64,000 nt of DNA from positions 14,504 through 78,503 of the IMG/VR virus record IMGVR_UViG_3300031952_000007; one strand, 5' to 3'. A program made the position numbers and the translations under genes. Positions 5,417 to 20,000 of the stretch are shown here, one piece after another. Position 1 is the first letter of the stretch. Every line of letters begins with the position of its first letter. The stretch is from a virus. Taxonomy: Duplodnaviria > Heunggongvirae > Uroviricota > Caudoviricetes > Crassvirales. The notes beneath the pieces were generated by a model. That model was not told the origin of the DNA. It saw only the letters and a program-made list of their open reading frames with translations, and did no database searches.

Positions 5417-6286
5417 TTAGAAATCAGAACCATCTGTAGAAAATGTTTCATCAGATGCTACTAAATTATCTTCAGCGTTATAGTCTTTCAAGTCTTTCAG
5501 AATGTAAAACTCTTTACATCCATATTCACCTGTAATACCTTTAACAAACCTTTCTACACCTTTGAGATCTTTAGAAGTTTTGTTTTGGATTGACTTAAGA
5601 ACATTACTGTTACTGTAGTCAACCAATCTAAATTGCTTCAAGAAATAAGAAGGAAGAAAGTCTTTGTTATACACTCCCTGGTATTCTTTAATCTCATCAT
5701 CTTTTGTAACAGTTTTAATTGTTGCAAGAGCTATGAAAGTAACATCATAACCACCAGTGATTTGTTCTTTAAGATCTTTAGTGTTACCTTTCATCAACCT
5801 TTTCCAATCAAGTTCTAAAGTTGTTTCAGCATCACTGTAATCAAGACCACCTAACCATGTGCGTAAGAAGTTGTACAAATCATCTTCACCAACATGAGCT
5901 TCACGATAATCTCTTTTAGCAAACCATGTAGGTAGAGCTTCTTCATTCTCTGCCCAAGAACTTACACCAACATTATTGATGTATTGTTTCTTAGTAAGAT
6001 CTTTGTTCTTCCTAACCTTGTTCTCTAGATAGAAAGTCATCTTGAACTTATCTTTGTTCTTAACTTCTTCTAGCCAAATGTCTACACGAAGTTTTGCATC
6101 TCCTGTATCATTTGTTGTTAAATACTCAAGTGTCTTACTGTCTTCTTTCAACTCAATGTTTAGAAGATCTTTGTAATCTTCTGCATCAGGATTGATAGCA
6201 ATCACTCTGCTTTCAAACAATCCTACCTTTTTACTAAACTCAGGTAGTTGCTTACTTTCTCTTTTTTTACCTCCAATGTTACTCAT
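5417..6286 (-). CDS. hypothetical protein; possible ssDNA-binding protein
   Basis: 289-aa ORF ending in an acidic tail ...ASDETFSTDGSDF, reminiscent of SSB C-terminal acidic tails; otherwise no motif. Confidence 0.45.
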   Translation of the reverse strand: MSNIGGKKRESKQLPEFSKKVGLFESRVIAINPDAEDYKDLLNIELKEDSKTLEYLTTNDTGDAKLRVDIWLEEVKNKDKFKMTFYLENKVRKNKDLTKKQYINNVGVSSWAENEEALPTWFAKRDYREAHVGEDDLYNFLRTWLGGLDYSDAETTLELDWKRLMKGNTKDLKEQITGGYDVTFIALATIKTVTKDDEIKEYQGVYNKDFLPSYFLKQFRLVDYSNSNVLKSIQNKTSKDLKGVERFVKGITGEYGCKEFYILKDLKDYNAEDNLVASDETFSTDGSDF

Positions 6287-6306
6287 TGTTTTCTGTGTTT
6301 TAATTG

Positions 6307-6978
6307 TTAATTATAATATGCGTCAACTGTATCTACAACTAATTGTAAATTATTTGGAATTTTTACTTCTTCAAACATTCCTGAAGGACTCTTTGCTGGA
6401 AACTTTTTAAACCTGTTTGTTACAAAACTGTACGTACAAACACCATCCTTAGCTTCTTCTACAAATGTGTACAAACACACTGTAAGAAGTCCTTCTAAAA
6501 CAATCTGATTATCAATCAGCTTACCTGCTGTTTTAATCTTATATCCTACAATCTCTCCACCATCTTCAATAGTTTCAGGATGCGTAAAGTAGAACACTTT
6601 AATATCATCTCTAAGTTTACGAGCTTCTCTAAACACTCCCACAATATCTCTAGCCATAAGAGTAAATTTGGCATAACCAACCTCTGTAGCTTTAGCTATC
6701 ATGTTAAAACCCATGATGTAATTACTGTCCTCGATGATGATGTTCTTGATGTGAGGAGCATTCTTTGAAATCTTCTGAAGATGTAGAGCAATGTCAATAG
6801 CATCATCCATTTCTTTGTAATTCTTGTTCTCTTCATTATAGAGCTTTTCTGCTCCTTTGAAGGGAAGTTCTTTCTTTGCTACGTTAATAATATACGTAGT
6901 TTTTGGATCTAAATGCTTGATAGAGGTTGACTTACCTGTACCTGAAGCACCAACAATCCCAATTAATTTACTTGCCAT
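6307..6978 (-). CDS. P-loop NTPase (small Sak4/AAA_24-like recombination ATPase or nucleotide kinase)
   Basis: N-terminal Walker A IGIVGASGTGKST; Walker B-like hydrophobic stretch ending in D (IIIEDS); 223 aa. Confidence 0.55.
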   Translation of the reverse strand: MASKLIGIVGASGTGKSTSIKHLDPKTTYIINVAKKELPFKGAEKLYNEENKNYKEMDDAIDIALHLQKISKNAPHIKNIIIEDSNYIMGFNMIAKATEVGYAKFTLMARDIVGVFREARKLRDDIKVFYFTHPETIEDGGEIVGYKIKTAGKLIDNQIVLEGLLTVCLYTFVEEAKDGVCTYSFVTNRFKKFPAKSPSGMFEEVKIPNNLQLVVDTVDAYYN

Positions 6979-7000
6979 GTTTTAAATTTTAGTTTATTAT

Positions 7001-7213
7001 TTAATCCTTCGAAGATACAACAATTTTGTCAGATTTCAAAATTGTTGTCTTAGTATCCATAAGGTTTGGATCTTTAATAAGTTGCTCATAAAGATACTGC
7101 ACTTCATCAAGATTTTTACCAAAACTACTGTCAATCATCTTACCACCTATAGTGACATAATAATAAGCTGGCTCATTAAATTCTTCTCTTTTAACTAATT
7201 CAATTTTCTTCAT
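7001..7213 (-). CDS. hypothetical protein (70 aa)
   Basis: Small co-oriented ORF with a 4-nt overlap with the helicase exon. Confidence 0.4.
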   Translation of the reverse strand: MKKIELVKREEFNEPAYYYVTIGGKMIDSSFGKNLDEVQYLYEQLIKDPNLMDTKTTILKSDKIVVSSKD

Positions 7214-7983
7214 ACATACTTAATTTTTGATTGATTTAACATTGATAGACTCTCTACAATTTTCTTTAGTTCTGGTTTCTCATTCAAACATAAAATGTGC
7301 AAGTCAGCAATCTTTCCATGATAGTCTAATTTAATAGCTCTATTTAGGATTTGAGAACTCTCTTCAGCATTATATGTAAAGTTGGTGAGGATTACAGAAT
7401 CAAGATCTGGATAGGTTACACCAATCTTTCCCATTGCTGCTAATGCAAGATGATTTATCTCTCCATTCTTGAAGTCTTGAAAATTACCATCATTCTTAGA
7501 CTTACTATGATAGGAAGGACAACCAACCTCATCAGCAACCTTTGCAAGACCTGTGAACACTAACACTCGTTTATCTGACAAATCGTTTAGAAGAGCCTTT
7601 AAATAGCTCATTTTGGCAATTGATGATTGAGAGAGTCTGTTTCTAGCTAATGCTAAATGCATAAAGTTTCTACCTTCTCTTTTCAACTTTTCAATCACCC
7701 AAGAATAACCATCATATTTCTGTTTCTCTGTCTTTTCTTTACCATTCTTGTCTATTGTAACTTTCTTTGTGTCTAGATTGATAAGATGTACAGAGATTTG
7801 ATAGTCTGCTAATATACCATCCTCAATTCCTTGATCTGTGGTGTAGCTTCCTATCTCTTTAATCTCTTCCCATTGCTCAATAGTTTCTGATGATACAGTT
7901 CCTGATAGACACAATGTGTACGTACAATTATCAATTATCTCTTTACACAATTCTCTTTCATTCTCACTTGCACTGTGGAATTC
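7210..7983 (-). CDS. SF2 helicase, 3' exon (helicase C-terminal domain)
   Basis: Frame is open upstream of the annotated TTG 'start' (7950) back to 7983, giving EFHSASENERE-LCKEIID... Carries helicase motifs III (LSGT), IV (VLVFTGL) and V/VI (ILTNFTYNAEESSQILNRAIKL). Joins exon 1 to restore the DExH box. Confidence 0.65.
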   Translation of the reverse strand, partial: EFHSASENERELCKEIIDNCTYTLCLSGTVSSETIEQWEEIKEIGSYTTDQGIEDGILADYQISVHLINLDTKKVTIDKNGKEKTEKQKYDGYSWVIEKLKREGRNFMHLALARNRLSQSSIAKMSYLKALLNDLSDKRVLVFTGLAKVADEVGCPSYHSKSKNDGNFQDFKNGEINHLALAAMGKIGVTYPDLDSVILTNFTYNAEESSQILNRAIKLDYHGKIADLHILCLNEKPELKKIVESLSMLNQSKIKYV

Positions 7984-9044
7984 CGTTTATGTTAACTTTT
8001 AGTTTCCTAAAAGACCAGACTATATCTTATTACTAAATTAAAATTTTTTGTCAGACCAATAATAACCTCCACATTTACCTTTTCTTTTAATAGCCTCAAA
8101 AATTCCTGATGGATATTTACAAGGATTTATTATATTAAAAGCTTCAGTAACAGAAGAAAAAACTTGTAATAAATTTTTATTGCAATCATACATATATACA
8201 ATTTTAGATTTATTTATATAACTCTTGTTATAATTATTAGATAAATAATCTTTTTCATATAAAATTATATGATTTCCTGCAGTTATATTTGTCATCTTTT
8301 TTGAAAGAACATTGCTAATACTAGTGATTTTAACATTAAGGTTTTTAGCACACTCCCCTATAGATGAGAAAGTGTTTATATAATCATAATTTAAAGATAA
8401 TACTACAACTTTTTTTTTATGACCATCCGAAGATCTTTGTAAACTATCTTTAGTGCGATCTACTATTAATCCTTTTCCACCTTCTCTAATATTAGTTAAA
8501 TTATTATAGTTATTTATCCAGTATTTTTCTTTTTCTTCCCAATTGTTTTTATCACATTCTTCAATTAATGTAATAATAGGATACAAGTTTTGTTTTTTAA
8601 GAGTTTTTATCCAATTACAAACATGAGTTTTTACATTTTTTGTAAAAGCTGCACATTTATGTTGACTTAATCTTTGAGACAACCTTGATACTGTAACACC
8701 AACATATCTAATTTCCTTTGTTATAGGATTAGATAAACTATAAATTTTATATGTTCTTTCCATAATAGTATTATAATGAATTTCACTACAATACTACATA
8801 AATTAATTTAATAATCCAAGCGTTTCATGTTAAATAATTATTAACATTACTCTACTCCCTTTATACAAAATATTGTATAGGTTTCGATAGTCGTTGAACC
8901 TTATTCCCATTAGGAATCTTGGCTGCTGATTGTCCAATTCTTATCTCTTTTACTATAATATAGTCATTACTGCTATATGGAGTGTATAAGACTCTAAGGA
9001 GTTTCCAGTCAATTAACTTGGTTTAAAGTGAACTTATATAATCA
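7984..9044 (-). mobile_element. group I intron (IA2-like) inside the SF2 helicase gene, carrying a GIY-YIG HEG
   Basis: Minus-strand core elements: P-like AAUUGACUGGAAACUCC (+8992..9017), Q AAUCAGCAGCCAAG (+8920..8938), R GUUCAACGACUA (+8888..8903), S AAGAUAUAGUCUGG (+8010..8030). P6 and P9 hairpins present. The internal guide sequence GUUCAC can pair with the exon end GUGGAU with a U.G wobble at the 5' splice site. The 3' end is a G in ...ACG|GAAUUC. Confidence 0.7.
8038..8763 (-). CDS. GIY-YIG homing endonuclease (intron-encoded)
   Basis: N-terminal YKIYSLSNPITKEIRYVGVT (GIY...YVG), then R..H, EKYWINNY and NIREGG motifs. Lies between R and S of intron 1 (P8 position). Confidence 0.8.
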   Translation of the reverse strand: MERTYKIYSLSNPITKEIRYVGVTVSRLSQRLSQHKCAAFTKNVKTHVCNWIKTLKKQNLYPIITLIEECDKNNWEEKEKYWINNYNNLTNIREGGKGLIVDRTKDSLQRSSDGHKKKVVVLSLNYDYINTFSSIGECAKNLNVKITSISNVLSKKMTNITAGNHIILYEKDYLSNNYNKSYINKSKIVYMYDCNKNLLQVFSSVTEAFNIINPCKYPSGIFEAIKRKGKCGGYYWSDKKF

Positions 9045-9350
9045 ATCCACTATAAAGAAATCAAACTCGTATTCTGTATATTTCTTTACAGAACTAAAGT
9101 TTACATATGTAATGTTGGGATTATTATATCCCCACAGCTCACATTCATTCATCCAGGTATCTCTAAGCTTGTTGTCTGGATAGGCAATTAGTAATGTACA
9201 ATCATAATCAAACTTCTTTTTAAGAATCTCAATTGTGGTTTTACATTTACCAAACCTCATTGCAAGATTTAGATATCCAGACTTATTCTTTTTGTAGAAT
9301 GTCAATGATTTCTTTACAAATTCATCCTGCAGTTTGTCTTGTACATTCAT
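9045..9350 (-). CDS. SF2 helicase, 5' exon (motifs I-II)
   Basis: Walker A-like AMRFGKCKTT; ends ...DFFIVD immediately before the intron. Spliced product reads ...FFIVD|EFHSAS..., i.e. the DExH box is completed across the junction. Confidence 0.65.
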
Positions 9351-9610
9351 TATACGTATTTTATAACATTACCTTCTGCATCTTTTAATGCAGTTACACT
9401 AAACAAACCATCATAATGCGTCATGATATTAGCATGAATACCATTTAAATCTGCTCCTGTTTGTACTCCCCACATCTGTAAGAACATATAGAATTCCTGT
9501 TGCCCTAACATTTGTTTATGTTTAGAAGCATCAAAGTTCTCTCTATAATGTTCATAGAGAATATTCGTGGGTGCATTACCTTTTAAGTGTATATAAGTTT
9601 CTTTGTCCAT
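9350..9610 (-). CDS. hypothetical protein (86 aa)
   Basis: Co-oriented ORF; ATGA overlap with helicase exon 1. Confidence 0.45.
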   Translation of the reverse strand: MDKETYIHLKGNAPTNILYEHYRENFDASKHKQMLGQQEFYMFLQMWGVQTGADLNGIHANIMTHYDGLFSVTALKDAEGNVIKYV

Positions 9611-9782
9611 TGTTAGTTATTATAAATGTAGCTGACCAAAATAACCATTCGAAATTCACAGCAATATAATCATCCACTCTATCTATGTTGTTAAGGATGC
9701 TAATTGTTGGAATTAATACCACTTGCCAAAATTTATCATTTTTACTTGGGAGGGTATTAAATGTTCCTACTTCTAATTTCAT
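9576..9782 (-). CDS. hypothetical protein (68 aa)
   Basis: Small ORF overlapping the previous one by 35 nt; hydrophobic centre. Confidence 0.35.
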   Translation of the reverse strand: MKLEVGTFNTLPSKNDKFWQVVLIPTISILNNIDRVDDYIAVNFEWLFWSATFIITNNGQRNLYTLKR

Positions 9783-9789
9783 ATTCTTT

Positions 9790-10854
9790 TTATTTGTTTA
9801 GAAAAAATGTTTTGTTTGTTACAGATGCATAATATGAATCTGTCATGTCCTTCTTTTTAGGTAGTTCTTTGAATATACCTAGTTGACCAAGAAAACCAAG
9901 TCCCACTCTAAGATCATCTGATCCATAAGAGTTCTTAATTAGTCTTAATGAACGAAAGTATTTAGCACCGAATTCATCTCTAAGCTTGTTAAGATCATAT
10001 CCAGAAGGATCTGGAACCTTATATCTCATAGGATCAAATAGAGCTAATACAACATCTGCGTCATTTTGTGTAGAAGAACTCTCACTGAAATCCTCTAGCT
10101 GTGGTTCTACATCACCATTTTTTATCCTAATAGGATTAGATATAGATCTGTTAAACTGACTCACAACAACAGGAGTGTAACCAAAGAAATCTCTTGCATA
10201 TCTGAGCTCATCACTCATCTTATCAATAGCTTCCTTCTTAGTTGGTTGATCTTTTGTTGTTTTCAATAGACCAATGTGATCTATAACAACAATAGTAACT
10301 TCGTTCTCATTATTGGGAATATAACGTTTGTTGTATTTGTCTATCTCTTCTATACGACCATTCTGTAAAGCGTGTTCTTTTAGCTCTTTAGCTATACCTA
10401 CAGGATTCTCTGGACCATCTATTACAGTGATCACCTCTTTCATTTGATTAGCATAATCTTCATACATAAGAAATAAGTCATGTTCATCACTAGTCATCTT
10501 ATCTGTCCAACCCAACAGCTTGTTCACTGGAATAATCACACCATGATCTATAAAGATCTTACGAGATATCCACTTTGCAAGCTTATAAGTTCCACTTCTC
10601 TCCATAGAGCGATAGATGATCCTTAGCTTAACATCAGATTTATTCTTATCAGAGATGTACCAATCAAATGGATTAAGAACATAAGCATCATCAATAAAAG
10701 ATGTTTTGCCTGAACCAGTGTTACCACCTATAAGAGTGTACATACCTTTTCTAATACCTATGTGCTTATCAAGTCTATTGAATCCCATAGGAACACTATC
10801 GTTTCTACCAGCAATACCTTTTGCTACTTCTGCTTTTAATTGTTCAAAACTCAT
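9790..10854 (-). CDS. DnaB-family replicative DNA helicase (RecA-fold C-terminal domain)
   Basis: Walker A GGNTGSGKTSF, Walker B VIDHIGLL, SQFNR and DADVVLALF motifs in DnaB/T7 gp4-helicase order. Confidence 0.7.
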   Translation of the reverse strand: MSFEQLKAEVAKGIAGRNDSVPMGFNRLDKHIGIRKGMYTLIGGNTGSGKTSFIDDAYVLNPFDWYISDKNKSDVKLRIIYRSMERSGTYKLAKWISRKIFIDHGVIIPVNKLLGWTDKMTSDEHDLFLMYEDYANQMKEVITVIDGPENPVGIAKELKEHALQNGRIEEIDKYNKRYIPNNENEVTIVVIDHIGLLKTTKDQPTKKEAIDKMSDELRYARDFFGYTPVVVSQFNRSISNPIRIKNGDVEPQLEDFSESSSTQNDADVVLALFDPMRYKVPDPSGYDLNKLRDEFGAKYFRSLRLIKNSYGSDDLRVGLGFLGQLGIFKELPKKKDMTDSYYASVTNKTFFLNK

Positions 10855-10864
10855 AATGTTAATG

Positions 10865-11497
10865 TTAAATGTCTGTACTGCCTTCTATTATTTGATGTGT
10901 CTCAATTTTAACACCCTCTTTAATCAACTCAATAAATGGCTCAAAAGTTCTTTGATTAAGATAGGTGAGTGAATTCTGCATGTATGTCATTCTATTCACT
11001 CCTGTCTTTACAGAACTTTCTTTCTTCTGAACCACCTCATAAGCCAATGCTTCAACCAATTCTTCAATGGTGTATTCACCCTCTTCAAGAATCTTATCAA
11101 GTTTAATCTTACAGTCATCTTTCTTTGCTCTTAGATTTCTACTACCTGAAAATGATTTACCACTATGTACAAAAGTATCAGTGCCTGGATATGTCTTCCA
11201 CCAGAGAGAGAATGCATCATCAGTTGGTTTTTTCTTGATGATGACATCCTCTTCATCTTGTGTTTCTAGAAACTTAATAAGCTCTTTACCAGACAATGTA
11301 AGCTTTCCTTCTGTTGTAACTAACCCCTTTCTATATATTCCCTGATAGATCGCTTCTATCTTAGGAACCTCTTGACATAACACTTTTACATCTGCTTGTT
11401 CCTCAACAATCAAGTTAAGGATAAATAACATGTCTAAGGTATATCCTTTTCTTTGAATTTCTCTAAAATGGGAGAACGTTAGCTTTGATAGATCCAT
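10865..11497 (-). CDS. hypothetical protein (210 aa)
   Basis: Co-oriented ORF directly downstream of the DnaB-like gene. Confidence 0.5.
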   Translation of the reverse strand: MDLSKLTFSHFREIQRKGYTLDMLFILNLIVEEQADVKVLCQEVPKIEAIYQGIYRKGLVTTEGKLTLSGKELIKFLETQDEEDVIIKKKPTDDAFSLWWKTYPGTDTFVHSGKSFSGSRNLRAKKDDCKIKLDKILEEGEYTIEELVEALAYEVVQKKESSVKTGVNRMTYMQNSLTYLNQRTFEPFIELIKEGVKIETHQIIEGSTDI

Positions 11498-11678
11498 TTT
11501 CTAATATTTTATCCTTGTCTATTACTATAATCTTTGCAGGTTTTCTATTTATGTAATCGTAATGCTCCTGCTCAATCCTTAATTGCTCTTCTAGCAAATA
11601 CATCTCATACTTTAGGTGTTCATGTTCCCAATCTTCATTTCTCATCTTCTTTGTAATTTTCATTAAATAAATCTTCAC
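11463..11678 (-). CDS. hypothetical protein (71 aa)
   Basis: Small ORF, 35-nt overlap with the downstream gene. Confidence 0.35.
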   Translation of the reverse strand: MKIYLMKITKKMRNEDWEHEHLKYEMYLLEEQLRIEQEHYDYINRKPAKIIVIDKDKILENGSIKANVLPF

Positions 11679-11805
11679 CTTTGTAATCTGGATGTTCTTT
11701 TTGCATCTTATCTATTCCTCTTACCCATAATGCTGCTATTGGTGCTGTAATCACCACTATTATTCCTATCACTTGTAATTTGTTTAAAATTGTTAATAAC
11801 ATAAT

Positions 11806-12057
11806 TTAATCTTTTACTCTTAAACCAAACTGAAGATCGAACCAGTCGAATGTACTTCTTGCTTTGGTTTTGTTAAACTTAAATACTTTTTGTAACACAG
11901 GAATAGCATAAGCTTTGAATTGGTCATGCTGTTCCTGTGTAAGTGTCCAATTGAAGAACCACATGTCATCTTTGAGAGCTTCTGCCATAGTTTTACCAAC
12001 CATTTTTAGTTGGTATTCCATTAAATGATCTGAAACGTTTAATCTGTTAATTGCCAT
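11806..12057 (-). CDS. hypothetical protein (83 aa)
   Basis: Small co-oriented ORF. Confidence 0.45.
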   Translation of the reverse strand: MAINRLNVSDHLMEYQLKMVGKTMAEALKDDMWFFNWTLTQEQHDQFKAYAIPVLQKVFKFNKTKARSTFDWFDLQFGLRVKD

Positions 12058-12102
12058 TGTATATATATTTTATATACAAAGATACGACAATTAATTATTT
12101 TA

Positions 12103-13083
12103 TTAAAACATGGAGATTTGATTTGGATTTACAACCACTTTTCTCTTCTTACCTTCTGTCTGAATCTTACTAACTATTGTATTACACTTCTCAATGTAAT
12201 ATTCATAATTGATATTATCCATAGGATGATCTTTAGTTAAGTGGTTACAAACTGTGCACATCCACTCACCAGCTTCCACTTGTGATATTGGTGGAGCATT
12301 AGTTACACAGCTATCGTTTTTTACTTTAAGAAGCTTCACTCCTTTATTTGATACATAATAACGAATGAGTTTATTATAGATAAACTTCTCACCTGTGCCT
12401 CTAACTATACCCTCATAATGGAAATCTCTCGAAGCTTTTTGTCTTAACGCAAAGTCATAGATGTTAGAATGATTCCTAACAGTATGCTCAATAGGTATAT
12501 TATTAACAAAATATTGTTCGAGAGCCAATGGTACAATCCTGGCTGATTTGTTTTTATGTAATTCAAAATCTGTGAGGAAATCCCCTTTCTTTTTAATTTC
12601 GCCATCTGTTTTAATTGCTAAGTAGTCATTAACTGTTGAGAATATAATCTTTTGATAGTCTGTTCTTTCCAATTCATAACTTGTCAGCTCTTGCCACCAA
12701 GTATTAATTGAATTCATTAGAGCTAAGTCTGTCTTTTTAACCATTATAGTTACACCATCTGTATTAGCAGATATAACATGAATATTATTAGTTTCATACT
12801 TCTCAATCAACATCATTAGACTCAACTCACCAGTGATACAAGTGAACATTGTAAGTTGCTTATCATAAATCCAGCTCTGCATGTCAGAACTCTTGCCATA
12901 AACACTGTTTACAGCTAATTTAAGAGCACCTACAATACCCTTGATCTTCTTATCCTTCTTAGCTAATGGTTTAAGCTCCAACCTCTTATCAAACATTTGC
13001 TTGTATCCATTAAGAAACTCTTTACCTAGATGTCCTGGATATTGCTCATTGTTAATGATGATGGCTGGATAGTATGCATCCCA
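12103..13083 (-). CDS. family-B DNA polymerase, 3' exon (polymerase motifs A-part, B, C)
   Basis: KLAVNSVYGK (Kx3NSxYG, motif B) and ISANTDGVTIM (DTD-type motif C). The annotated start is a TTG; the sequence WDAYYPAIII at the exon start completes motif A. Exon boundary is approximate (+/-7 nt). Confidence 0.7.
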   Translation of the reverse strand, partial: WDAYYPAIIINNEQYPGHLGKEFLNGYKQMFDKRLELKPLAKKDKKIKGIVGALKLAVNSVYGKSSDMQSWIYDKQLTMFTCITGELSLMMLIEKYETNNIHVISANTDGVTIMVKKTDLALMNSINTWWQELTSYELERTDYQKIIFSTVNDYLAIKTDGEIKKKGDFLTDFELHKNKSARIVPLALEQYFVNNIPIEHTVRNHSNIYDFALRQKASRDFHYEGIVRGTGEKFIYNKLIRYYVSNKGVKLLKVKNDSCVTNAPPISQVEAGEWMCTVCNHLTKDHPMDNINYEYYIEKCNTIVSKIQTEGKKRKVVVNPNQISMF

Positions 13084-14041
13084 GCCTCTGTAATCTTTCA
13101 ATTACAGCTGGACTATATCATCATTTAACTTTTAATTCTTTTTCCCAAATAAACCCATACATTGAAGGTTTGTTACCTGAACACACTGAATATATTTGTT
13201 GCCATTTATAAGAAGGATTTATTTCAGTTATTTCTTTTACTGAACCCCATTTTCTTATAAACTGTCTATCTTTTGTGTACTGATTGATATAATATTTAAC
13301 AGTTGCTTCTGAAACTTTTTTTGCCATTTCTTTAGTAGCCTCTGGATTATCTTTCCAATAAGTATGACTAACTTTTAGTCTTTCTTTTGGATCTTTATAT
13401 CTATTAATCTGAGCTTCACTGAGTTTTTTTCTTGTTTCTTTTGAAACAATGCAACTAGTTTCTGAATCTAATCTAATATTATATCCTTTGTCTCTATTAG
13501 TACATTTATAAACTCTTTGCCAATATAATTCTCGTTCCTTTAACTGGTCTAATTGTACAAATTCTATTACAAAATATTCAAAGTTTTCTCTTCCGTATTT
13601 ATGCCAAGCATTTATAAAATGGTCATTTTCATCTTTACTTCTTTTATTAAGAAGATTAATGTGTTGTCTGATTCTTCTATAAATACATTTAGCTTTTCCA
13701 ATATAAACTTTGCTATTTGTTTTATTTCTTATACAATATATTCCACTTTGGTCTAAATGTTCTTTTCTATTCAATTTCATGCTACAAATATATGTAATTA
13801 CATGGATAGAACCAAGACACTTATATTAATTAATTGTTAAATGTTCCCTGTTTAGTCTCTGAACCTTGATCTATTTCACTATAGACCCTTGGCTGCGGAT
13901 TGTCCAATCTTAATCTTTTTTACCATACCTGAGTAATTACTTCAGCCATTATATGTATTTCTACTATAACTTGGTAGATTAAGCTCTAAGGAGATCCCCG
14001 TCAATTTAAGGAATTTTAGTTACGCCATAGTATTAACGAAA
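13084..14041 (-). mobile_element. group I intron inside the DNA polymerase gene, carrying a GIY-YIG HEG
   Basis: Minus-strand P AAAUUGACGGGGAUCUCC (+13985..14010), Q AAUCCGCAGCCAAGGG, R GUUCAGAGACUA, S GAUGAUAUAGUCCAG (+13110..13123) and a P9 hairpin (+13088..13107). The heptamer TGGGATG occurs at both exon edges, so the exact splice point is ambiguous within 7 nt. Confidence 0.65.
13121..13780 (-). CDS. GIY-YIG homing endonuclease (intron-encoded)
   Basis: SGIYCIRNKTNSKVYIGKA (GIY...YIG), then R..H, FEYFVIE and ELYW motifs. The stop codon overlaps the S element of intron 2. Confidence 0.8.
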   Translation of the reverse strand: MKLNRKEHLDQSGIYCIRNKTNSKVYIGKAKCIYRRIRQHINLLNKRSKDENDHFINAWHKYGRENFEYFVIEFVQLDQLKERELYWQRVYKCTNRDKGYNIRLDSETSCIVSKETRKKLSEAQINRYKDPKERLKVSHTYWKDNPEATKEMAKKVSEATVKYYINQYTKDRQFIRKWGSVKEITEINPSYKWQQIYSVCSGNKPSMYGFIWEKELKVK

Positions 14042-15020
14042 CATCCCAATCAATGATTTCATACTCATCATCAGCATCAAATGTTTTAGGCTTGTTCTCT
14101 GTATGAAGACCACCTTTCATGAAAGAATACACATTATTATAAAAGTTTATGCTCTCTTTAAAATCATCCATCATCTTAAGCTTAACCTTCTTAATCTTTT
14201 TCAAGAAGTCTTTTAGCTGTGGAGTTTCAAACACTACATAATCAGCAATACAATGTCTAACGAAGATTTCCTTCCTGAACTTACCTTTTTTTGGTAATTG
14301 ACTGTATTTGATGTTCCTCTCTTGACAATAGAACTTCTTAATCATCTCATCACCAATCTTACTGTCAGAATAATTCAAACATGGAATATTAAACTCTTCT
14401 TGAATGTCCTGTCTAAGTTGTATCTGATTGTTTCCTTTGTATAAAGGATGTTCACAGTCACCAATAGTAATCTTGTAGAACTCATAAGTGGCCATAACAT
14501 CATTCCTACAATAGTCTTTAGTCATTTGAATTTCTTCATCTGTCATATCAACCTTTGTATGATGAATAGGCATCTCTTCAATGTTCTCAAGATCCATCTC
14601 AAACTCCAGTCTCTTTAGACTCACCATACGATTCTTATTATCGTAGTGGTTCACCTTGAATACATCAATTTGTTTAAGACTAAGATCAGCTTCTCTGTAT
14701 TTAGGCATTACATCATAATTAGCATCATGAATAACATCTCCTGCATTAACAGCAATCTTAGCACAAATATCAAGATAGCTTAAAGAACCCCATTCTTCAT
14801 AGCTTTTAAGGATGAATTCAATCACTTGACTGTCAAACCTAAGATTGTTATACCCAACCCAATAATGGTCCTTATAAGCCTCTGTGAACCTCACAAAGCT
14901 ATCAAGATTATTAGCAAGCTTACTCACTTCAAACTCAAAATATATGTCTGTTTTTACATCATAAACTCCTACAAGAAATAGTTCTTGCATAGTTTCTATG
15001 TCAAATATTAATACTTTCAT
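14042..15020 (-). CDS. family-B DNA polymerase, 5' exon (3'-5' exonuclease domain)
   Basis: Exo I LIFDIET, Exo II YNNLRFDSQVIEF, Exo III YCRNDVMATYEFY. Ends ...YEIIDW(D) at the intron; inferred spliced junction is ...EIIDWDAYYPAIII (motif A, DxxSLYPSII-like). Confidence 0.7.
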
Positions 15021-15213
15021 AACTTTTCTTACTTGGGTCTACAAAGGTAACACCTTTTGTGATAATTTCAACTAATGTTGAGTATTCTTTTGAACGTAAA
15101 ACACCTTCTAAATTCTCGTTATTCCAATAGTCTACATAAAGTTCTCTTGGAATCGCATTCCATAATCCCTTATAGAAATTATAATGAAATACATAGCCAT
15201 ACAATTTATCCAT
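15001..15213 (-). CDS. hypothetical protein (70 aa)
   Basis: Small co-oriented ORF. Confidence 0.4.
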   Translation of the reverse strand: MDKLYGYVFHYNFYKGLWNAIPRELYVDYWNNENLEGVLRSKEYSTLVEIITKGVTFVDPSKKSYESINI

Positions 15214-15224
15214 ATTAATTTGTT

Positions 15225-15527
15225 TTATAAAGTTTCCTTATTTGGAAACTCTTTTTTATAATCTACTTCCCAAACATTTGCTTTTTGTACAGTTGGAATA
15301 CCTTCCAAACCCATAAAACTCTTAACTTCATATGAAATTGTTCCAACAAAATCACTGCCTCCATATTTATGTTCATAAGGCTTCCATTCTAATCTTTTAC
15401 CAGTGTTATTGTATTCTATTGTTGCTCCATAATAATTATCAGTGATGTAAAACACACCTTCTAATGTATCTGCTGCACCTATTGGTTGATTATCATCAGC
15501 ATCTGTAATTACATATACTACTTGCAT
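15225..15527 (-). CDS. hypothetical protein (100 aa)
   Basis: Co-oriented ORF. Confidence 0.5.
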   Translation of the reverse strand: MQVVYVITDADDNQPIGAADTLEGVFYITDNYYGATIEYNNTGKRLEWKPYEHKYGGSDFVGTISYEVKSFMGLEGIPTVQKANVWEVDYKKEFPNKETL

Positions 15528-15546
15528 TATTTCTTGTTTTTGTTAA

Positions 15547-15879
15547 TTATAATTTTCTTTCTGATTCCCATTCTGATATAACAAATTCTAATTTAAGCTT
15601 TGCCAAATTCCATTTCTTAGTTCTCCATGCTTGAGCTTGAAATCCACCACTACCAGAAATCCATCCTATATCTGCATGTTCTGTGTTGTCTGGATCTGTA
15701 GCTTGTTCAATAGCACTGTGTAAGTTACGAGTGGCACATTGTACTAATTCTTTACGAGTGGGTGTGTCTTTACTTCCAGCCCATCTCCAATTTAAATCAT
15801 ACATTACTTTTACCACCTTATCAAAATCAAAATTCTCAATGATTTGATCTATCATTTCTTGCTGTGTGTATTTCTTCAT
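15547..15879 (-). CDS. hypothetical protein (110 aa)
   Basis: Co-oriented ORF. Confidence 0.5.
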   Translation of the reverse strand: MKKYTQQEMIDQIIENFDFDKVVKVMYDLNWRWAGSKDTPTRKELVQCATRNLHSAIEQATDPDNTEHADIGWISGSGGFQAQAWRTKKWNLAKLKLEFVISEWESERKL

Positions 15880-16070
15880 AAGTTTTCTATCTCTTGTTTT
15901 ACATCAAACCAATAATCATCATTAATAACATAACCACTCTCTGGAATTGCTTTTATTATCTCATCTATTGCTATCAATACACAATCTTTGGCTTTTCTCT
16001 TGCTTTCTATGTATGTAAGAAGCTCATCGTATTTTATTAATAGTTCTACTGCTTTCTCTTTTGCTGTCAT
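15876..16070 (-). CDS. hypothetical protein (64 aa)
   Basis: ATGA overlap with the upstream gene. Confidence 0.45.
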   Translation of the reverse strand: MTAKEKAVELLIKYDELLTYIESKRKAKDCVLIAIDEIIKAIPESGYVINDDYWFDVKQEIENL

Positions 16071-16072
16071 AA

Positions 16073-16312
16073 CTAATCTTTTTTAAATGTTTCTTGATAA
16101 AACTGTTCTCCACAATTTTCTTCATCAATCATTGGAGATTGATTAATATATCCATTATACCAAGCATTTATTATCTCTTGATTGTGCATTACTTTTGCTT
16201 GCTCAAATATATTAAATTGAACTATTGTGCTTTTTCTTTCTATATCTTTAATAAGACGGTAATAGTGTATTGATTTTTTTAATTCATTTTCTAACCATTC
16301 TACTGATGTCAT
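16073..16312 (-). CDS. hypothetical protein (79 aa), paralog of 16309..16488
   Basis: N-terminus MTSVEWLENELKK matches the neighbouring small ORF (MTAIEWLEEQL). Confidence 0.5.
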   Translation of the reverse strand: MTSVEWLENELKKSIHYYRLIKDIERKSTIVQFNIFEQAKVMHNQEIINAWYNGYINQSPMIDEENCGEQFYQETFKKD

Positions 16313-16488
16313 AATTCTTTTTTATATTTCAGTTTATAATATTGTTCACCTGTTTCTGCTAAAAATCCCCATGTAGCAGCATCTGTTATCTGTTCTTTTT
16401 CTTTCTCTTTAGCTTCTTTGATTTCACTGTACATACTATTCTTAATACGTATAGGTAATTGTTCTTCTAACCATTCAATTGCTGTCAT
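16309..16488 (-). CDS. hypothetical protein (59 aa), tandem paralog
   Basis: Unlisted ORF (below the 60-aa cutoff): ATG at 16488, MTAIEWLEEQLPIRIKNSMYSEIKEAKEKEKEQITDAATWGFLAETGEQYYKLKYKKEL, stop overlapping the ATG of 16312 (ATGA). Confidence 0.4.
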   Translation of the reverse strand: MTAIEWLEEQLPIRIKNSMYSEIKEAKEKEKEQITDAATWGFLAETGEQYYKLKYKKEL

Positions 16489-16507
16489 GTTTTTATATTT
16501 TAATTTT

Positions 16508-16551
16508 AACTTGGTCCCAACTTAGTCCCAACTTGGTGCCAACTTAGTGCT
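16508..16551. repeat. four tandem 11-bp direct repeats AACTT(G/A)GT(C/G)CC
   Basis: aacttggtccc / aacttagtccc / aacttggtgcc / aacttagtgc read directly in the sequence, in the intergenic region between 16488 and 16647. Confidence 0.8.
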
Positions 16552-16646
16552 TTATACTTCATAGTAAGAATGTAAGATTGAAACTAACTGGAAGTATAGA
16601 AAACCATACTAACACTTAAAGGCTTAAGTGAAAATATAACTGGTAA

Positions 16647-16847
16647 TTAGCTACTCAAATTGTCTTGTTTTGCTACTTTTAAAGAACAATCTTCACAATA
16701 TTGTGGATCTAGATGTCCATTACCTCTTGCAAAATTAGCTTCTTCATCTGTAAATTCAAACCCCACCTTAATTATCTTACTGCATTTTATGTTGGAGCAT
16801 AAAATTGCTAAATGTCCACTATTCCATTTCACTCTTGCTTTCTCCAT
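16647..16847 (-). CDS. small zinc-ribbon protein (66 aa)
   Basis: Two Cys pairs, CSNIKC and CEDC, in a 66-aa ORF. Confidence 0.45.
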   Translation of the reverse strand: MEKARVKWNSGHLAILCSNIKCSKIIKVGFEFTDEEANFARGNGHLDPQYCEDCSLKVAKQDNLSS

Positions 16848-16932
16848 AACTTATAAGTTTAAAATGTTAATTAATTAGTTAACCCAAAAGATAACAAAAA
16901 TGGGTTACATCTTTACGATATAACTTAAAATG

Positions 16933-17002
16933 CAGTTAGGATGTGAATCGAACACACTATCTCCCTTATGATCAGTTGCATTATCCAACATGCTCCCTAA
17001 CT
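16933..17002 (-). ncRNA. tRNA-like element (possible degenerate tRNA)
   Basis: Minus strand has a perfect 7-bp acceptor pairing (AGUUAGG / CCUAACU), a D-arm GCAU-GUUGGAUA-AUGC, and a canonical T-arm GUGUG-UUCGAUU-CACAU. No canonical anticodon stem could be built by eye. Confidence 0.2.
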
Positions 17003-17144
17003 ATATGCAACTAATACCCCTGTAGTTGCCACATGCTAACTTACGATTTAGCGAGATAAGTGTGCTTCGTAATCCTTTTTGATTAGCTATCTCAAGGCAA
17101 TTAGAGAGGCATTCTCTGTCTTTCGATCCTCTGGCCAATAGAGG

Positions 17145-17405
17145 CTAATTTATTCCAAATAGAAACTTAAAACATGATTTATAAATAAACCATTTACCTT
17201 TTAATGGTTTATCCCAATTGTAATTTCTATCTAGCTTATGATATGATGTTTCTAAGAAATCATCTTCCCATGCTTCTTTAGAAACAGCAAAATCTATAAA
17301 TGCCATTTCTAATATTACTTCATAATGGAAATAATATCCCAAAAACCATCCTTCAGCTTCATAAGGAGATTCAACAGTTGGTTTTTTTCTCCAATATATA
17401 ATCAT
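17145..17405 (-). CDS. hypothetical protein (86 aa)
   Basis: Co-oriented ORF, ATGA overlap with the upstream ORF. Confidence 0.45.
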   Translation of the reverse strand: MIIYWRKKPTVESPYEAEGWFLGYYFHYEVILEMAFIDFAVSKEAWEDDFLETSYHKLDRNYNWDKPLKGKWFIYKSCFKFLFGIN

Positions 17406-17680
17406 TTTGTTTCTTTTACAAATCTGAATGCAACAAGTCTATTGTTGTATTCAAATCTACGTTTATTAATAGGGTTTAAACTGTTCATCATCACTTCATA
17501 ACTAACCTTTACAGTTTTCATAGCTGAAGTGATAGATGGTAGGACAATCTCCTCTTTAGTATCTATAAAGATCATTCTGATCTCTCTAGAATTGTCATAA
17601 GTCACTTTGTTCATTGCTTCTAGTTTTAAATTAATAATGTGGAGGTGCAGGGAGTCGCATAATGTGGATATCTTAAACAA
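17402..17680 (-). CDS. hypothetical protein; probably the 3' exon of an intron-interrupted gene
   Basis: Annotated start is TTG. The frame stays open upstream to 17716, immediately after the S element of intron 3. Confidence 0.4.
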   Translation of the reverse strand: MFKISTLCDSLHLHIINLKLEAMNKVTYDNSREIRMIFIDTKEEIVLPSITSAMKTVKVSYEVMMNSLNPINKRRFEYNNRLVAFRFVKETK

Positions 17681-17716
17681 ACTTACAAAGAACCACTGCC
17701 CATGTTGCCATGAGGA

Positions 17717-17880
17717 TTAGACTATATCATCACCTGTTCTAGGTGCTGGACGCTTATTCCTGTTATTAAGAAGACTTTACTTCTCAGGTAGTCGTTGAAC
17801 CTTCTTAGAATGTATTCTAAGCTTGGCTGCTGATTGTCCTAACTTCACTGTTAGGAGTTCCAGCAATTCATCCAGTTTTT
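17717..17880 (-). mobile_element. group I intron core (third copy), no homing-endonuclease ORF
   Basis: Minus-strand P GAUGAAUUGCUGGAACUCC (+17854..17873), Q AAUCAGCAGCCAAGC (+17822..17839), P6 hairpin cuuagaaugcauucuaag, R GUUCAACGACUAC (+17789..17804), S GAUGAUAUAGUCUAAUC (+17720..17732). Elements are in the same order and near-identical in sequence to introns 1 and 2. Confidence 0.5.
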
Positions 17881-17966
17881 AATTAAGTATTCCTACTTAA
17901 TGGGTCCAATTCCCAAACCCTGGTCTTTTCAAGACCCAATAAATCCATTTTTACAAGCTTAGATCT

Positions 17967-17994
17967 TGTCACAATTATTTTAAAAATTGTGACA
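17967..17994. repeat. perfect 10-bp inverted repeat TGTCACAATT-n8-AATTGTGACA
   Basis: Read directly in the sequence; AT-only 8-bp spacer attttaaa; sits in the ~700-bp noncoding stretch between intron 3 and the terminator at 18346. Confidence 0.8.
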
Positions 17995-18345
17995 TAATCA
18001 GTAAGGGAAACTAACCAGTGGTATAAAAGCCACCAGCTCCACCATCTAGTTTATGAACTAGAAAACTAACTTTCTTTTTACACCATATAGTCTTAGGTGG
18101 TAGAATTCTCAAGATGTCTCAAGCTCTTACGATTGTAACTATTATGTTCCTTGGACAGTTACCATCCAGAGAACTACGCTGCTACAGCAACATTAGCAAA
18201 AGCCATGTTGATGATCATTGCACCTTCGTTCTGACGTACTAACTTAGAGTTGTCGTTTGATTGTTAATCAGTGTCTTTGAGTACTGACTGCCTCTTGCTT
18301 GTGAACCTACCTGATACATGAAAATCAAATGCCATACCACCCCCA

Positions 18346-18380
18346 TTTGAAAAAATATTTGCAGAGAATTTCTCCTCTGC
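18346..18380 (-). terminator. rho-independent terminator
   Basis: Minus strand: TTGCAGAG-gagaaatt-CTCTGCAA followed by atATTTTTTC, directly 3' of the stop at 18401. Confidence 0.6.
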
Positions 18381-18400
18381 AAATATAATCATTCTTGTTA

Positions 18401-18613
18401 TTACTTTCTAACAAATTTATGTCTAACAAAAATATTCTTAAATTCTCCTGATGGAGAATAATAATATCTGTTATTAGATATAACTATGCGTTCTTCTTTT
18501 GATGGAGCAAATATAGCTTCCATCAATTTCCTACAATTGTCATTAGGTGTATACACCTGAATGTGTTCCCTTGAGTGCATTCTTGATGAATACACTAATG
18601 TGTAATTTGCCAT
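18401..18613 (-). CDS. hypothetical protein (70 aa)
   Basis: Co-oriented ORF followed by a terminator. Confidence 0.45.
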   Translation of the reverse strand: MANYTLVYSSRMHSREHIQVYTPNDNCRKLMEAIFAPSKEERIVISNNRYYYSPSGEFKNIFVRHKFVRK

Positions 18614-18633
18614 TTGTGTGTGGTTTTTGATTG

Positions 18634-19047
18634 TTAGAAATATAATTTGATGTGATCGTTAAACATTTCTGCTTTTGTAGGCTTAAAATCAAATGAGAAA
18701 CCTTGTGGAAATGAAATAGATTCTTTCTTTACAATATCTATATCAACTCTTTTCTCAATGTTGTCCTTTGGGGCAACTCTATCACTTATTTTTACATAAC
18801 AAGAAGTTTTTTTAACAATCCAAACAATTTCATTATTGTCAATTATAACTTCATTATTCTTAATACTATACATTCTACTTCTAACATTGCTAAATGATCT
18901 ATTTAGTTTAGGAGCTAAATATTCTGCTGCTTTATATATGGTGCTAAATTTTTCCATACATGTAATTGCTGCTTTCATTTCTGATACTGTCCAAAATTTA
19001 AATGCTCTCATAATTTTTTTTTTAAAATGATTAGTTAATTTTTGCAA
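18634..19047 (-). CDS. hypothetical protein (137 aa)
   Basis: Co-oriented ORF. Confidence 0.5.
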   Translation of the reverse strand: MQKLTNHFKKKIMRAFKFWTVSEMKAAITCMEKFSTIYKAAEYLAPKLNRSFSNVRSRMYSIKNNEVIIDNNEIVWIVKKTSCYVKISDRVAPKDNIEKRVDIDIVKKESISFPQGFSFDFKPTKAEMFNDHIKLYF

Positions 19048-19648
19048 TACAACACATACACGATGTGTCTTTGTAATTTAAATAAATGTACTCGTTACCC
19101 TTGTCTGTGTGATAAACTTTATACTCTCTAGGAGAGAATTTAGTTACCACTGATACAATCTCTTCTCCTTTTGCTTTAAAGAACGTTGATATTGTTTCAA
19201 TGTCTTTAATTCTTCTAGAGAATGTCATTATAAAGTTCTTATTAAACTTCTTGATATGTTCTTTCATATATCTAACTGTAGAACAATAATCAAGATCGTA
19301 GAGAACATCATCTCTATCAGCATCAGCACTTAATATGTTTCCATATCTTAATGCAACAGTAGAATCTACTTCTCTCATTTGTTTCATTAGAACACCCATG
19401 TCTGATTCAAAGATTTCAAAATGATTAAAACCTTTCGATTTACAATATTGTAAATAGGCTTTAATATCTGGACCAGCTAGTCCTATGATTTTATTAAATT
19501 GCTTTAACACAAAGAAAGAGAACAAGAACTCTCTCACTGCTCTCTTTTCAGGTGAATCTTCATAACTTACTTTTGTTGCCATGATTTCTAGTTTTGAATT
19601 ATTGTATATCTGATTTATCGTTATCAATAAAATATCTATATAATACAT
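19031..19648 (-). CDS. hypothetical protein (true start probably the internal Met at 19582)
   Basis: The ORF's first 22 codons overlap the upstream secreted-protein gene; MATKVSYED... is the likely start. No reliable motif. Confidence 0.45.
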   Translation of the reverse strand: MYYIDILLITINQIYNNSKLEIMATKVSYEDSPEKRAVREFLFSFFVLKQFNKIIGLAGPDIKAYLQYCKSKGFNHFEIFESDMGVLMKQMREVDSTVALRYGNILSADADRDDVLYDLDYCSTVRYMKEHIKKFNKNFIMTFSRRIKDIETISTFFKAKGEEIVSVVTKFSPREYKVYHTDKGNEYIYLNYKDTSCMCCIAKIN

Positions 19649-20000
19649 TTTTATATATCACACAGAACACTCTTGACTTATCGTCATCATCCATTGTTAT
19701 GATGGCTATATTACATTTTCTACCTTTTTCATCCTTTACTACATCATAATGTAATGTTGAATAATCACTTCCATACTCAATTTTTCCTTTTCCATAAATT
19801 CTATATCTTGAATATGCTCTATCAGTAACATAAAAGTTTACACCATCAAACACAATTCTAACATTGAGATCATAAAGTTGACCATATGTCCATTTATTTG
19901 ATACTAATATACCTTTTTGACCATAGTCAGCTATTAAGACTTGTGCATTAACGCACACAGATGTAATAACAATTGTTATCACTAATAATAATTTTTTCAT
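19599..20000 (-). CDS. secreted protein with N-terminal signal peptide (133 aa)
   Basis: MKKLLLVITIVITSVCVNAQ is a typical Bacteroidetes signal peptide. Confidence 0.55.
   Translation of the reverse strand: MKKLLLVITIVITSVCVNAQVLIADYGQKGILVSNKWTYGQLYDLNVRIVFDGVNFYVTDRAYSRYRIYGKGKIEYGSDYSTLHYDVVKDEKGRKCNIAIITMDDDDKSRVFCVIYKNVLYRYFIDNDKSDIQ

Follow-up and report, generated by a model that had tools for sequence, protein, structure and literature searches.

The window analysed here, a stretch of 64,000 nucleotides (nt) from the Crassvirales virus record IMGVR_UViG_3300031952_000007 of IMG/VR (positions 14,504 to 78,503), very probably encodes a transfer-messenger RNA (tmRNA; gene ssrA) whose T-loop is interrupted by a group I intron. 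To this reading, in which the minus-strand segments 18344..17916 and 17657..17640 are the exons of a phage-encoded intron-form gene and would give an RNA of 447 nt upon splicing, we assign a probability of about 85% from the sequence. The insertion separates T-loop nucleotide 2 from nucleotide 3, a subsite that PMC11915505 numbers as "position 3". The case is built on the match of the intron to its covariance model, the geometry of the splice sites, the reconstitution of the exons, covariation and the family context. The elements of the two exons are:

17916..18344, minus strand: tmRNA exon 1 (429 nt), which begins with the acceptor 5' strand and ends with T-loop nucleotides 1-2
18338..18344, minus strand: acceptor-stem 5' strand GGGGGUG, pairing 7/7 with 17647..17641, including G3:U70
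18325..18333, minus strand: D-loop analogue GGCAUUUGA (tmRNA positions 12-20), with the motif GG.AUUUGA
18297..18302, minus strand: 5' strand ACAAGC of tmRNA helix P2 (positions 43-48), 6/6 pairs with GCUUGU
18266..18294, minus strand: candidate pseudoknot PK1 (S1 GAG/CUC, S2 AGUCAGU/ACUGAUU), drawn by hand
18174..18254, minus strand: tag frame DNSKLVRQNEGAMIINMAFANVAVAA followed by UAG, the frame being open from 18263
17953..17958, minus strand: 3' strand GCUUGU of tmRNA helix P2 (positions 387-392), inside the conserved block CUAAGCUUGUA
17916..17922, minus strand: T-stem 5' strand CAGGG and T-loop nucleotides 1-2 (UU), U17916 being the -1 U
17640..17657, minus strand: exon 2, with CGACU (T-loop 3-7), CCCUG, CACCUCC and the discriminator A, as obtained by in silico splicing

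When 17915..17658 is removed in silico, with a U at position -1 and an omega G as the last nucleotide removed, the flanks join to the T-arm CAGGG-UUCGACU-CCCUG, which has a 5-bp stem and a 7-nt loop of the form UUCRANY and directly abuts the acceptor strand; this T-arm forms only once the segment is excised. The predicted ligated junction is ...CAGGGUU|CGACUCCCUG, read as GACCAGGGUU|CGACUCCCUGCACCUCCA. The acceptor stem GGGGGUG/CACCUCC comprises 7 bp with the alanine G3:U70 pair and is followed by the discriminator A, and CCA is not encoded in exon 2. A comparable acceptor partner arose in 169 of 20,000 trials in which the 800 nt upstream were shuffled, and the combined signature of T-arm and acceptor occurs a single time on both strands of the window. 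A conserved GAC (17925..17923) directly precedes the T-stem 5' strand.

The segment between the exons is recognized by RF00028 (Intron_gpI) over 17698..17972 on the minus strand with 96.1 bits (E 1.5e-23, gathering score 50), the sole match at gathering level that Rfam gives in the window. Its parts are:

17915..17658, minus strand: group I intron, 258 nt, without an open reading frame (ORF), matched by RF00028 and included in a six-intron consensus fold
17902..17914, minus strand: internal guide sequence, pairing with the exons in P1 and P10
17906..17902, minus strand: guide GACCC of P1, pairing with exon GGGUU, with a U-G wobble at the splice site (U17916:G17906)
17914..17907, minus strand: guide GGGAAUUG of P10, pairing with CGACUCCC of exon 2 in 7/8 positions
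17882..17901, minus strand: intron P2 hairpin AUUAAGUA-GGAA-UACUUAAU, from the six-intron fold
17698..17876, minus strand: catalytic core P3-P9, with the P7 strands GACUA (17793..17789) and UAGUC (17724..17720)
17658, minus strand: omega G, the last intron nucleotide, from the in silico splice-site geometry

An earlier note on this DNA, made from the letters alone, had proposed a third, ORF-less group I intron core at this place. Its proposal is borne out by the Infernal search, which scored above the gathering value, and by the lack of any ORF of at least 30 codons within 17915..17658. The core lies where the note had put it, although the intron reaches about 30 nt past the lower limit given there. 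Among the three options that it had left for the region, "part of a longer structured RNA" came nearest, as the flanks are two tmRNA exons, but neither the RNA nor the splice sites had been identified. The intron is related to two others in the window, and the strings that its core was said to share with them are present (reverse complements 17788-17803, 17822-17839 and 17720-17732). Of these strings, the first and the second are found again in both other introns, each with more matches than in any of 100 shuffles; the third, a 13-mer, is found exactly only at 13111-13123 and 17720-17732 and does not exceed chance when two mismatches are allowed. These other introns, at ~8020..9045 and ~13085..14020 (minus strand), carry GIY-YIG endonuclease ORFs (8038..8763 and 13121..13780), and RF00028 misses both even at E<=1. 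The one at ~13085..14020 splits the DNA polymerase gene, the halves of which match profile positions 53-357 and 357-658 of PHROG 1252.

A consensus fold was built from six introns inserted at the same T-loop site. Compensatory changes occur in 22 of its 49 pairs, with covariation in P1, P2, P3, P5, P6, P8 and P9, and all six predicted pairs of intron P2 are affected. The wobble of the -1 U with G is present in 6/6 introns (columns 6/17), and across the family the P10 guide varies in step with the sequence of exon 2.

The relatives were collected by scanning IMG/VR and GTDB genomes for the P4-P6 signature of the intron, TGAATTGCTGGAA-N(8-38)-CAATCAGCAGCCAAG, which turned out to be very widespread (L012..L251; at least 120 loci in each collection). 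Many of the listed genome matches belong to metagenome-assembled genomes (MAGs) of Patescibacteria, including Saccharibacteria, and of Gammaproteobacteria. The flanks of 254 introns among the matches listed were screened for reconstitution of a T-loop together with a G3:U70 acceptor. The screen recovered locus L232 and the viral contigs L071 and L073, all with the intron at the subsite of the window, and the viral contig L056, with the intron at subsite position 7; the last was left out of the six-way fold. Only a handful of the introns among these matches lie in T-loops of tmRNA or tRNA. L071 and L073 carry the intron subfamily of the window at position 3 of a tmRNA T-loop, and L056 carries it at position 7. 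L232 is a 3.1-Mb contig (CAVVMO010000004.1) of a Bacteroidales MAG in which a match to the tmRNA family RF00023 (113.8 bits) abuts one to RF00028 (90.2 bits); spliced at the same site as the window, it is called by ARAGORN as a standard tmRNA with the Bacteroidales tag GETNYALAA. A further member, L007, is the 735-kb uncultured phage LR756501 with a tmRNA at 1097..1718 (RF00023 sub-threshold, 21 bits, E 1.5e-5). Its intron is 70% identical to that of the window, has the same 5' site in the T-loop and abuts the RF00023 match. The nucleotide before its exon 2 (CGAAUCCCUG) is A, not G, which reflects either an unusual omega nucleotide, a different 3' splice site or an assembly error.

Among the same loci is a case in a tRNA gene. 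In L020 (IMGVR_UViG_3300043392_000054, a 183-kb viral contig) a tRNA-Ala(UGC) at 9088..9392 is split by a group I intron (RF00028, 101 bits) placed in the T-loop after U54 (GUGGGU|AGG...GUAAG|UCGAAUCC); after in silico splicing ARAGORN calls tRNA-Ala. In a survey of tRNA introns, those of bacteria are placed in the anticodon loop alone (bioRxiv 10.1101/2020.01.27.920355).

The body of the window RNA resembles these tmRNAs. Comparison with L232 (GGAUUUGAC), L056 (GGCUUUGAC) and L071 (GGAAUUGAU) places the D-loop motif at the same position in all of them. The block CUAAGCUUGUA aligns across seven tmRNAs, and in six the 5' strand of tmRNA helix P2 begins at 42-44 and the 3' strand lies ~60 nt from the 3' end. 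This helix covaries, being GCAUGC/GCAUGU, ACAAGC/GCUUGU or GCAAGU/ACUUGU. With L232 the window shares the 3' block CUAAGC(A/U)UGUA...GAC and the T-arm, and the helix is equally positioned in both, with the compensatory change CAUG/CAUG to CAAG/CUUG. A pairing of 18320..18306 with ~18010..17996 was dropped, as it would cross this conserved helix. Further into exon 1, a pseudoknot PK1 may lie at 18294..18266; it was drawn by hand without covariation, and minimum free energy folding cannot represent pseudoknots. The frame that follows reads ...GAMIINMAFANVAVAA-UAG and ends in ...NMAFANVAVAA-UAG, with GAC at 18254 as the putative resume codon.

Two independent assemblies of a sister lineage, L010 and L011, contain the same intron, the same upstream block and a copy, 78% identical, of the 70-residue gene that follows. 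Their T-stem is GAGGG...CCCUC instead of CAGGG...CCCUG, a compensatory change from C-G to G-C across the intron. The tag end is GCC UAA in L010 and GCG UAG in the window, a synonymous change combined with a swap of stop codons that leaves the peptide intact. Window and L010 agree at 97.7% of positions in exon 1 and at 99.2% in the intron, as against 84-85% (DNA) for the two adjoining protein genes; this conservation suggests either purifying selection on the RNA or a recent transfer of the cassette, and a decaying relic would fit with neither. The L010 block follows two tRNA genes and not, as in the window, a protein gene with a terminator. Upstream of these tRNA genes, L010 1..230 has tRNA-like ends (UGUAGGA...T-arm...UCCUACA) with ~90 extra nucleotides between them, perhaps a tRNA that has acquired a large insertion, or else a further split RNA gene.

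Other relatives lack the gene. In L009 (575..685) only the last ~20 nt of the intron and ~18 nt after it, i.e. exon 2, are kept as a remnant of ~38 nt. The retention of these 18 nt together with the intron end was a first hint that they belong to the host gene of the intron and not to an ORF. L008 (170..260) shows a further deletion between two CCACAUUAU repeats. From these losses it follows that the cassette has been gained and lost within the phage lineage. L003-L005 are identical to the window and hence uninformative. A search of INPHARED for close phage relatives gave intron-core matches only, and each flanking protein found a single distant locus in IMG/VR, from which nothing could be learned about the RNA.

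Several results weigh against a functional tmRNA gene. RF00023 has no match on the window, even at E<=10 with exon 1 alone. ARAGORN at default settings calls no tmRNA on the RNA spliced in silico, returns only spurious "permuted" calls for it at -ps80 or lower, and finds no tRNA or tmRNA in the unspliced window. Both tools likewise miss L071, L073 and L056, whose bodies look tmRNA-like, so that we take the failure as a limit of sensitivity of little weight, although the negative result still stands. At 447 nt the RNA is long, pseudoknots PK1-PK4 are without covariation support, and no promoter was identified for the gene. A single sister lineage is informative; a metagenome search for the exon/intron junction brought up no contig but a source-like one. 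L008 and L009, both close relatives, are without the tmRNA gene and the intron, which argues that the gene is dispensable because they have lost it.

On such grounds one might regard exons and intron as decaying remnants, for instance of a captured host ssrA, which may or may not be transcribed but have no function in ribosome rescue. The failure of the general tmRNA finders, the absence of the gene from L008 and L009 with the short remnant in the latter, the unusually long tag with extra hairpins, and the A at the omega position of L007, by which at least one member of the set may be impaired in splicing, would all fit such a relic. Yet the change in the T-stem is compensatory, those in the tag are a synonymous substitution and a stop swap, and every canonical element (U-G wobble, omega G, P10, G3:U70 and T-loop consensus) is intact. 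The RNA is also 98-99% conserved next to flanking genes at 84-85%, and we consider decay quite unlikely. The degenerate relic that the earlier note had listed among its options fails on the same comparison and on the 96-bit core. A different division of the region, with the 5' splice site after U17963 and the 380 nt upstream as a structured leader or sensor for the downstream 70-residue gene, is suggested by the first Rfam alignment of the window. The generic P1 was aligned there to the hairpin 17968..17932 (CAAGAU|CUA...UGGGUCUUG, with a U-G wobble), 0.3 bits above the alternative, and the two downstream hairpins were taken as a poor P2 and an insertion. The upstream region also folds somewhat better than shuffles (z = -2.5). 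Such an arrangement would resemble the tandem of a c-di-GMP riboswitch and a group I ribozyme in Clostridioides difficile. However, no riboswitch or other family was found upstream (E<=10 in 17900..18360; E<=1 in 6000..20000). For exon 1 at E<=10, the sole weak Rfam match was wcaG in the tmRNA pseudoknot region (17958..18070, minus strand, 17 bits, gathering 42, E 0.9), which is probably due to chance. The hairpin taken as P1 is the conserved tmRNA block (CUAAGC(A/U)UGUA, within CUAAGCUUGUA), which pairs with ACAAGC at position 43, the one counted as an insertion is the covarying intron P2, and a splice site after U17963 has no convincing P10 or omega G partner. Offered 17636..17930 alone, RF00028 gives 95.8 bits with P1 at CAGGGUU|...GGACCC, i.e. 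at the T-loop, where the model itself also places it in L010 (97.3 bits) and L007 (96.1 bits). The leader is thus very unlikely. Exons joined around 17963 were tried and rejected: what precedes U17963 does not resemble a tRNA, none of 2160 in silico junctions nearby gave an ARAGORN tmRNA, and the exon evidence speaks against this site.

Least of all can the intron be expected to split a protein gene with a very short 5' exon and ORF 17402..17680 as the 3' exon, as the earlier note had thought probable. The mechanical ORF is indeed open from 17680, within the 3' tail of the intron, but the homologues of the 70-residue product match it from residue 1. They start at their own ATG and have no adjoining intron (stand-alone genes of 68-70 codons in L002, L008 and L009). 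The homologue in L002 (44% identical) is on an unrelated viral contig at a locus without any group I intron; those in L008 (91%) and L009 (84%) have their upstream neighbour gene on the opposite strand. TAA, TAG and TGA close all three frames of 17963..18400, in keeping with the note's ~700 bp without protein-coding capacity; an alternative genetic code upstream of the intron was ruled out by the same stops. The extended frame would also have to read through the acceptor strand of the tmRNA, and a split protein gene is hardly credible. The note's terminator upstream of the region was recovered as a hairpin with a T-run at 18386..18355.

With the intron-form tmRNA as the preferred reading, we infer the following course of events. 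A precursor RNA would be transcribed and the intron would fold, with P1 formed from exon GGGUU and guide GACCC and U17916 paired with G17906. In guanosine-dependent self-splicing of 17915..17658, an external guanosine would attack after U17916; P10, between CGACUCCC of exon 2 and guide GGGAAUUG, would align the 3' exon, so that the exons are joined with release of omega G17658. Ligation would create the T-arm CAGGG-UUCGACU-CCCUG and allow the two ends of the RNA to pair as the acceptor stem, and host RNase P, 3' trimming and CCA addition would mature the tmRNA. Alanyl-tRNA synthetase could then charge it via G3:U70, and together with host SmpB it would enter stalled ribosomes in trans-translation and add a phage-specific tag of ~26 residues ending in ANVAVAA.

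Intron-form tmRNA genes are an established class, with 883 unique sequences at four T-loop subsites; the position-3 cases all come from the class Bacteroidia, and a homing endonuclease gene (HEG) is present in only 4.1% (PMC11915505). The window gene is a phage-borne case of this known class, which its position 3 and lack of a HEG fit. With the Bacteroidia position-3 forms, represented by L232, it has in common the insertion point UU|CGA.U, the -1 U, the omega G, P10 onto T-loop and T-stem, and the absence of a HEG. The introns belong to the same subfamily (68% identity when aligned), and the tRNA-like domain, helix P2 and 3' block are the same. L232 is, however, chromosomal, 398 nt long when spliced, furnished with the standard tag GETNYALAA and found by RF00023 and ARAGORN, whereas the window gene is on a phage, gives 447 nt with an unrelated tag of 26 residues and is missed by both. 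L007 has the same T-loop insertion point but a different tmRNA body and acceptor sequence. Introns at position 7 of the T-loop, known first from Clostridium botulinum (Williams 2002, as cited in PMC11915505), are likewise group I introns in the T-psi-C loop whose splicing is needed for the T-arm; they differ in lying after loop nucleotide 6, not 2, and occur mainly in Bacillota, and the viral example in L056 is 669 nt long.

Phages with a tmRNA are known but uncommon; among them are OM43 phage Melnitz, whose ssrA is two-piece (PMC9004378), and mycobacteriophage DS6A, which has a mini-tmRNA (PMC11915505). Like these, the window carries a complete ssrA on a lytic-type phage genome near tRNA genes, and the presumed role, keeping or redirecting trans-translation of the host, would be the same. 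Those genes are one-piece or permuted and are detected by ARAGORN. A survey found tmRNA in 402 of 18,146 phage genomes (133 unique), scored by ARAGORN as one-piece or two-piece only (PMC9004378), and the window gene would escape it. In isolated phages the closest intron is that in psbA of cyanophage S-PM2, which is compact, ORF-less and 79% identical over the P3-P8 core; it differs in its location in a protein-coding gene, the lack of a P2 hairpin and its guide sequence.

We found no description of an intron-form tmRNA in a phage in the literature, which does not prove that there is none. Biologically the step is incremental, since intron-form tmRNAs and phage tmRNAs were both already known. 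What had been an "orphan" ribozyme within 700 bp of seemingly non-coding DNA becomes an annotated gene, and the taxonomic reach of subsite 3, earlier seen in Bacteroidia chromosomes only, is extended to viral or phage-like contigs (window, L010, L071 and L073). The case also exposes a blind spot of the tools, as ARAGORN and Rfam miss the tmRNA and the introns are missed in two of the three window cases. The dedicated tmRNA_intron covariance model is not in Rfam (Rfam 15); the conservative search cut-off of its authors is 150 bits plus 500 bp, and the lowest known intron form stands at 225 (PMC11915505). The exchange of introns between phage and host ssrA genes becomes a concrete, testable question. 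One and the same intron subfamily is found at this site both in a Bacteroidales chromosome and in several viral contigs that are unrelated, and a viral tRNA-Ala has it in its T-loop. On this basis phages of Bacteroidota might be reservoirs and vehicles that move T-loop group I introns among phage and host ssrA and even tRNA genes, with obligatory self-splicing gating the supply of phage tmRNA for re-tagging host or phage proteins with a degron of 26 residues. We hold this wider proposal to be speculative and rather unlikely.

The gene lies between two small protein genes, with these features at its borders:

18355..18386, minus strand: intrinsic terminator, 14-pair stem followed by TTTTTT, belonging to the upstream 70-residue gene (18401..18613)
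17402..17614, minus strand: independent 70-residue gene, function unassigned, with ATG at 17614, 25 nt downstream of the tmRNA

The 5' end of the tmRNA is 11 nt downstream of the terminator 18386..18355. The GC content is 0.36-0.41 over ~17600..18350, compared with 0.24-0.33 in the adjoining genes. The TTG ORF 17402..17680 overlaps the last 23 nt of the intron, exon 2 (17657..17640) and the spacer. Neither Pfam nor PHROGs gave a match for the downstream 70-residue gene or the neighbouring small ORFs. Elsewhere the window encodes terminase, portal, major head protein, rIIA and the split DNA polymerase. The relatives of the terminase are mostly from crAss-like and other phages of Bacteroidota hosts (Cellulophaga, Flavobacterium, Bacteroides), and the best single match is to a Leptolyngbya phage (39.5%).

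A further tRNA-like sequence lies at 16933..17002 on the minus strand of the window, in a GC-rich non-coding stretch (16848..17144). It has the acceptor AGUUAGG/CCUAACU and the T-arm GUGUG-UUCGAUU-CACAU and is called neither by ARAGORN at default settings nor by Rfam at E<=1. Its counterpart in L010 (2102..2172) is recognized as a tRNA with 41 bits, and the window sequence may be a degenerate or unusual tRNA.

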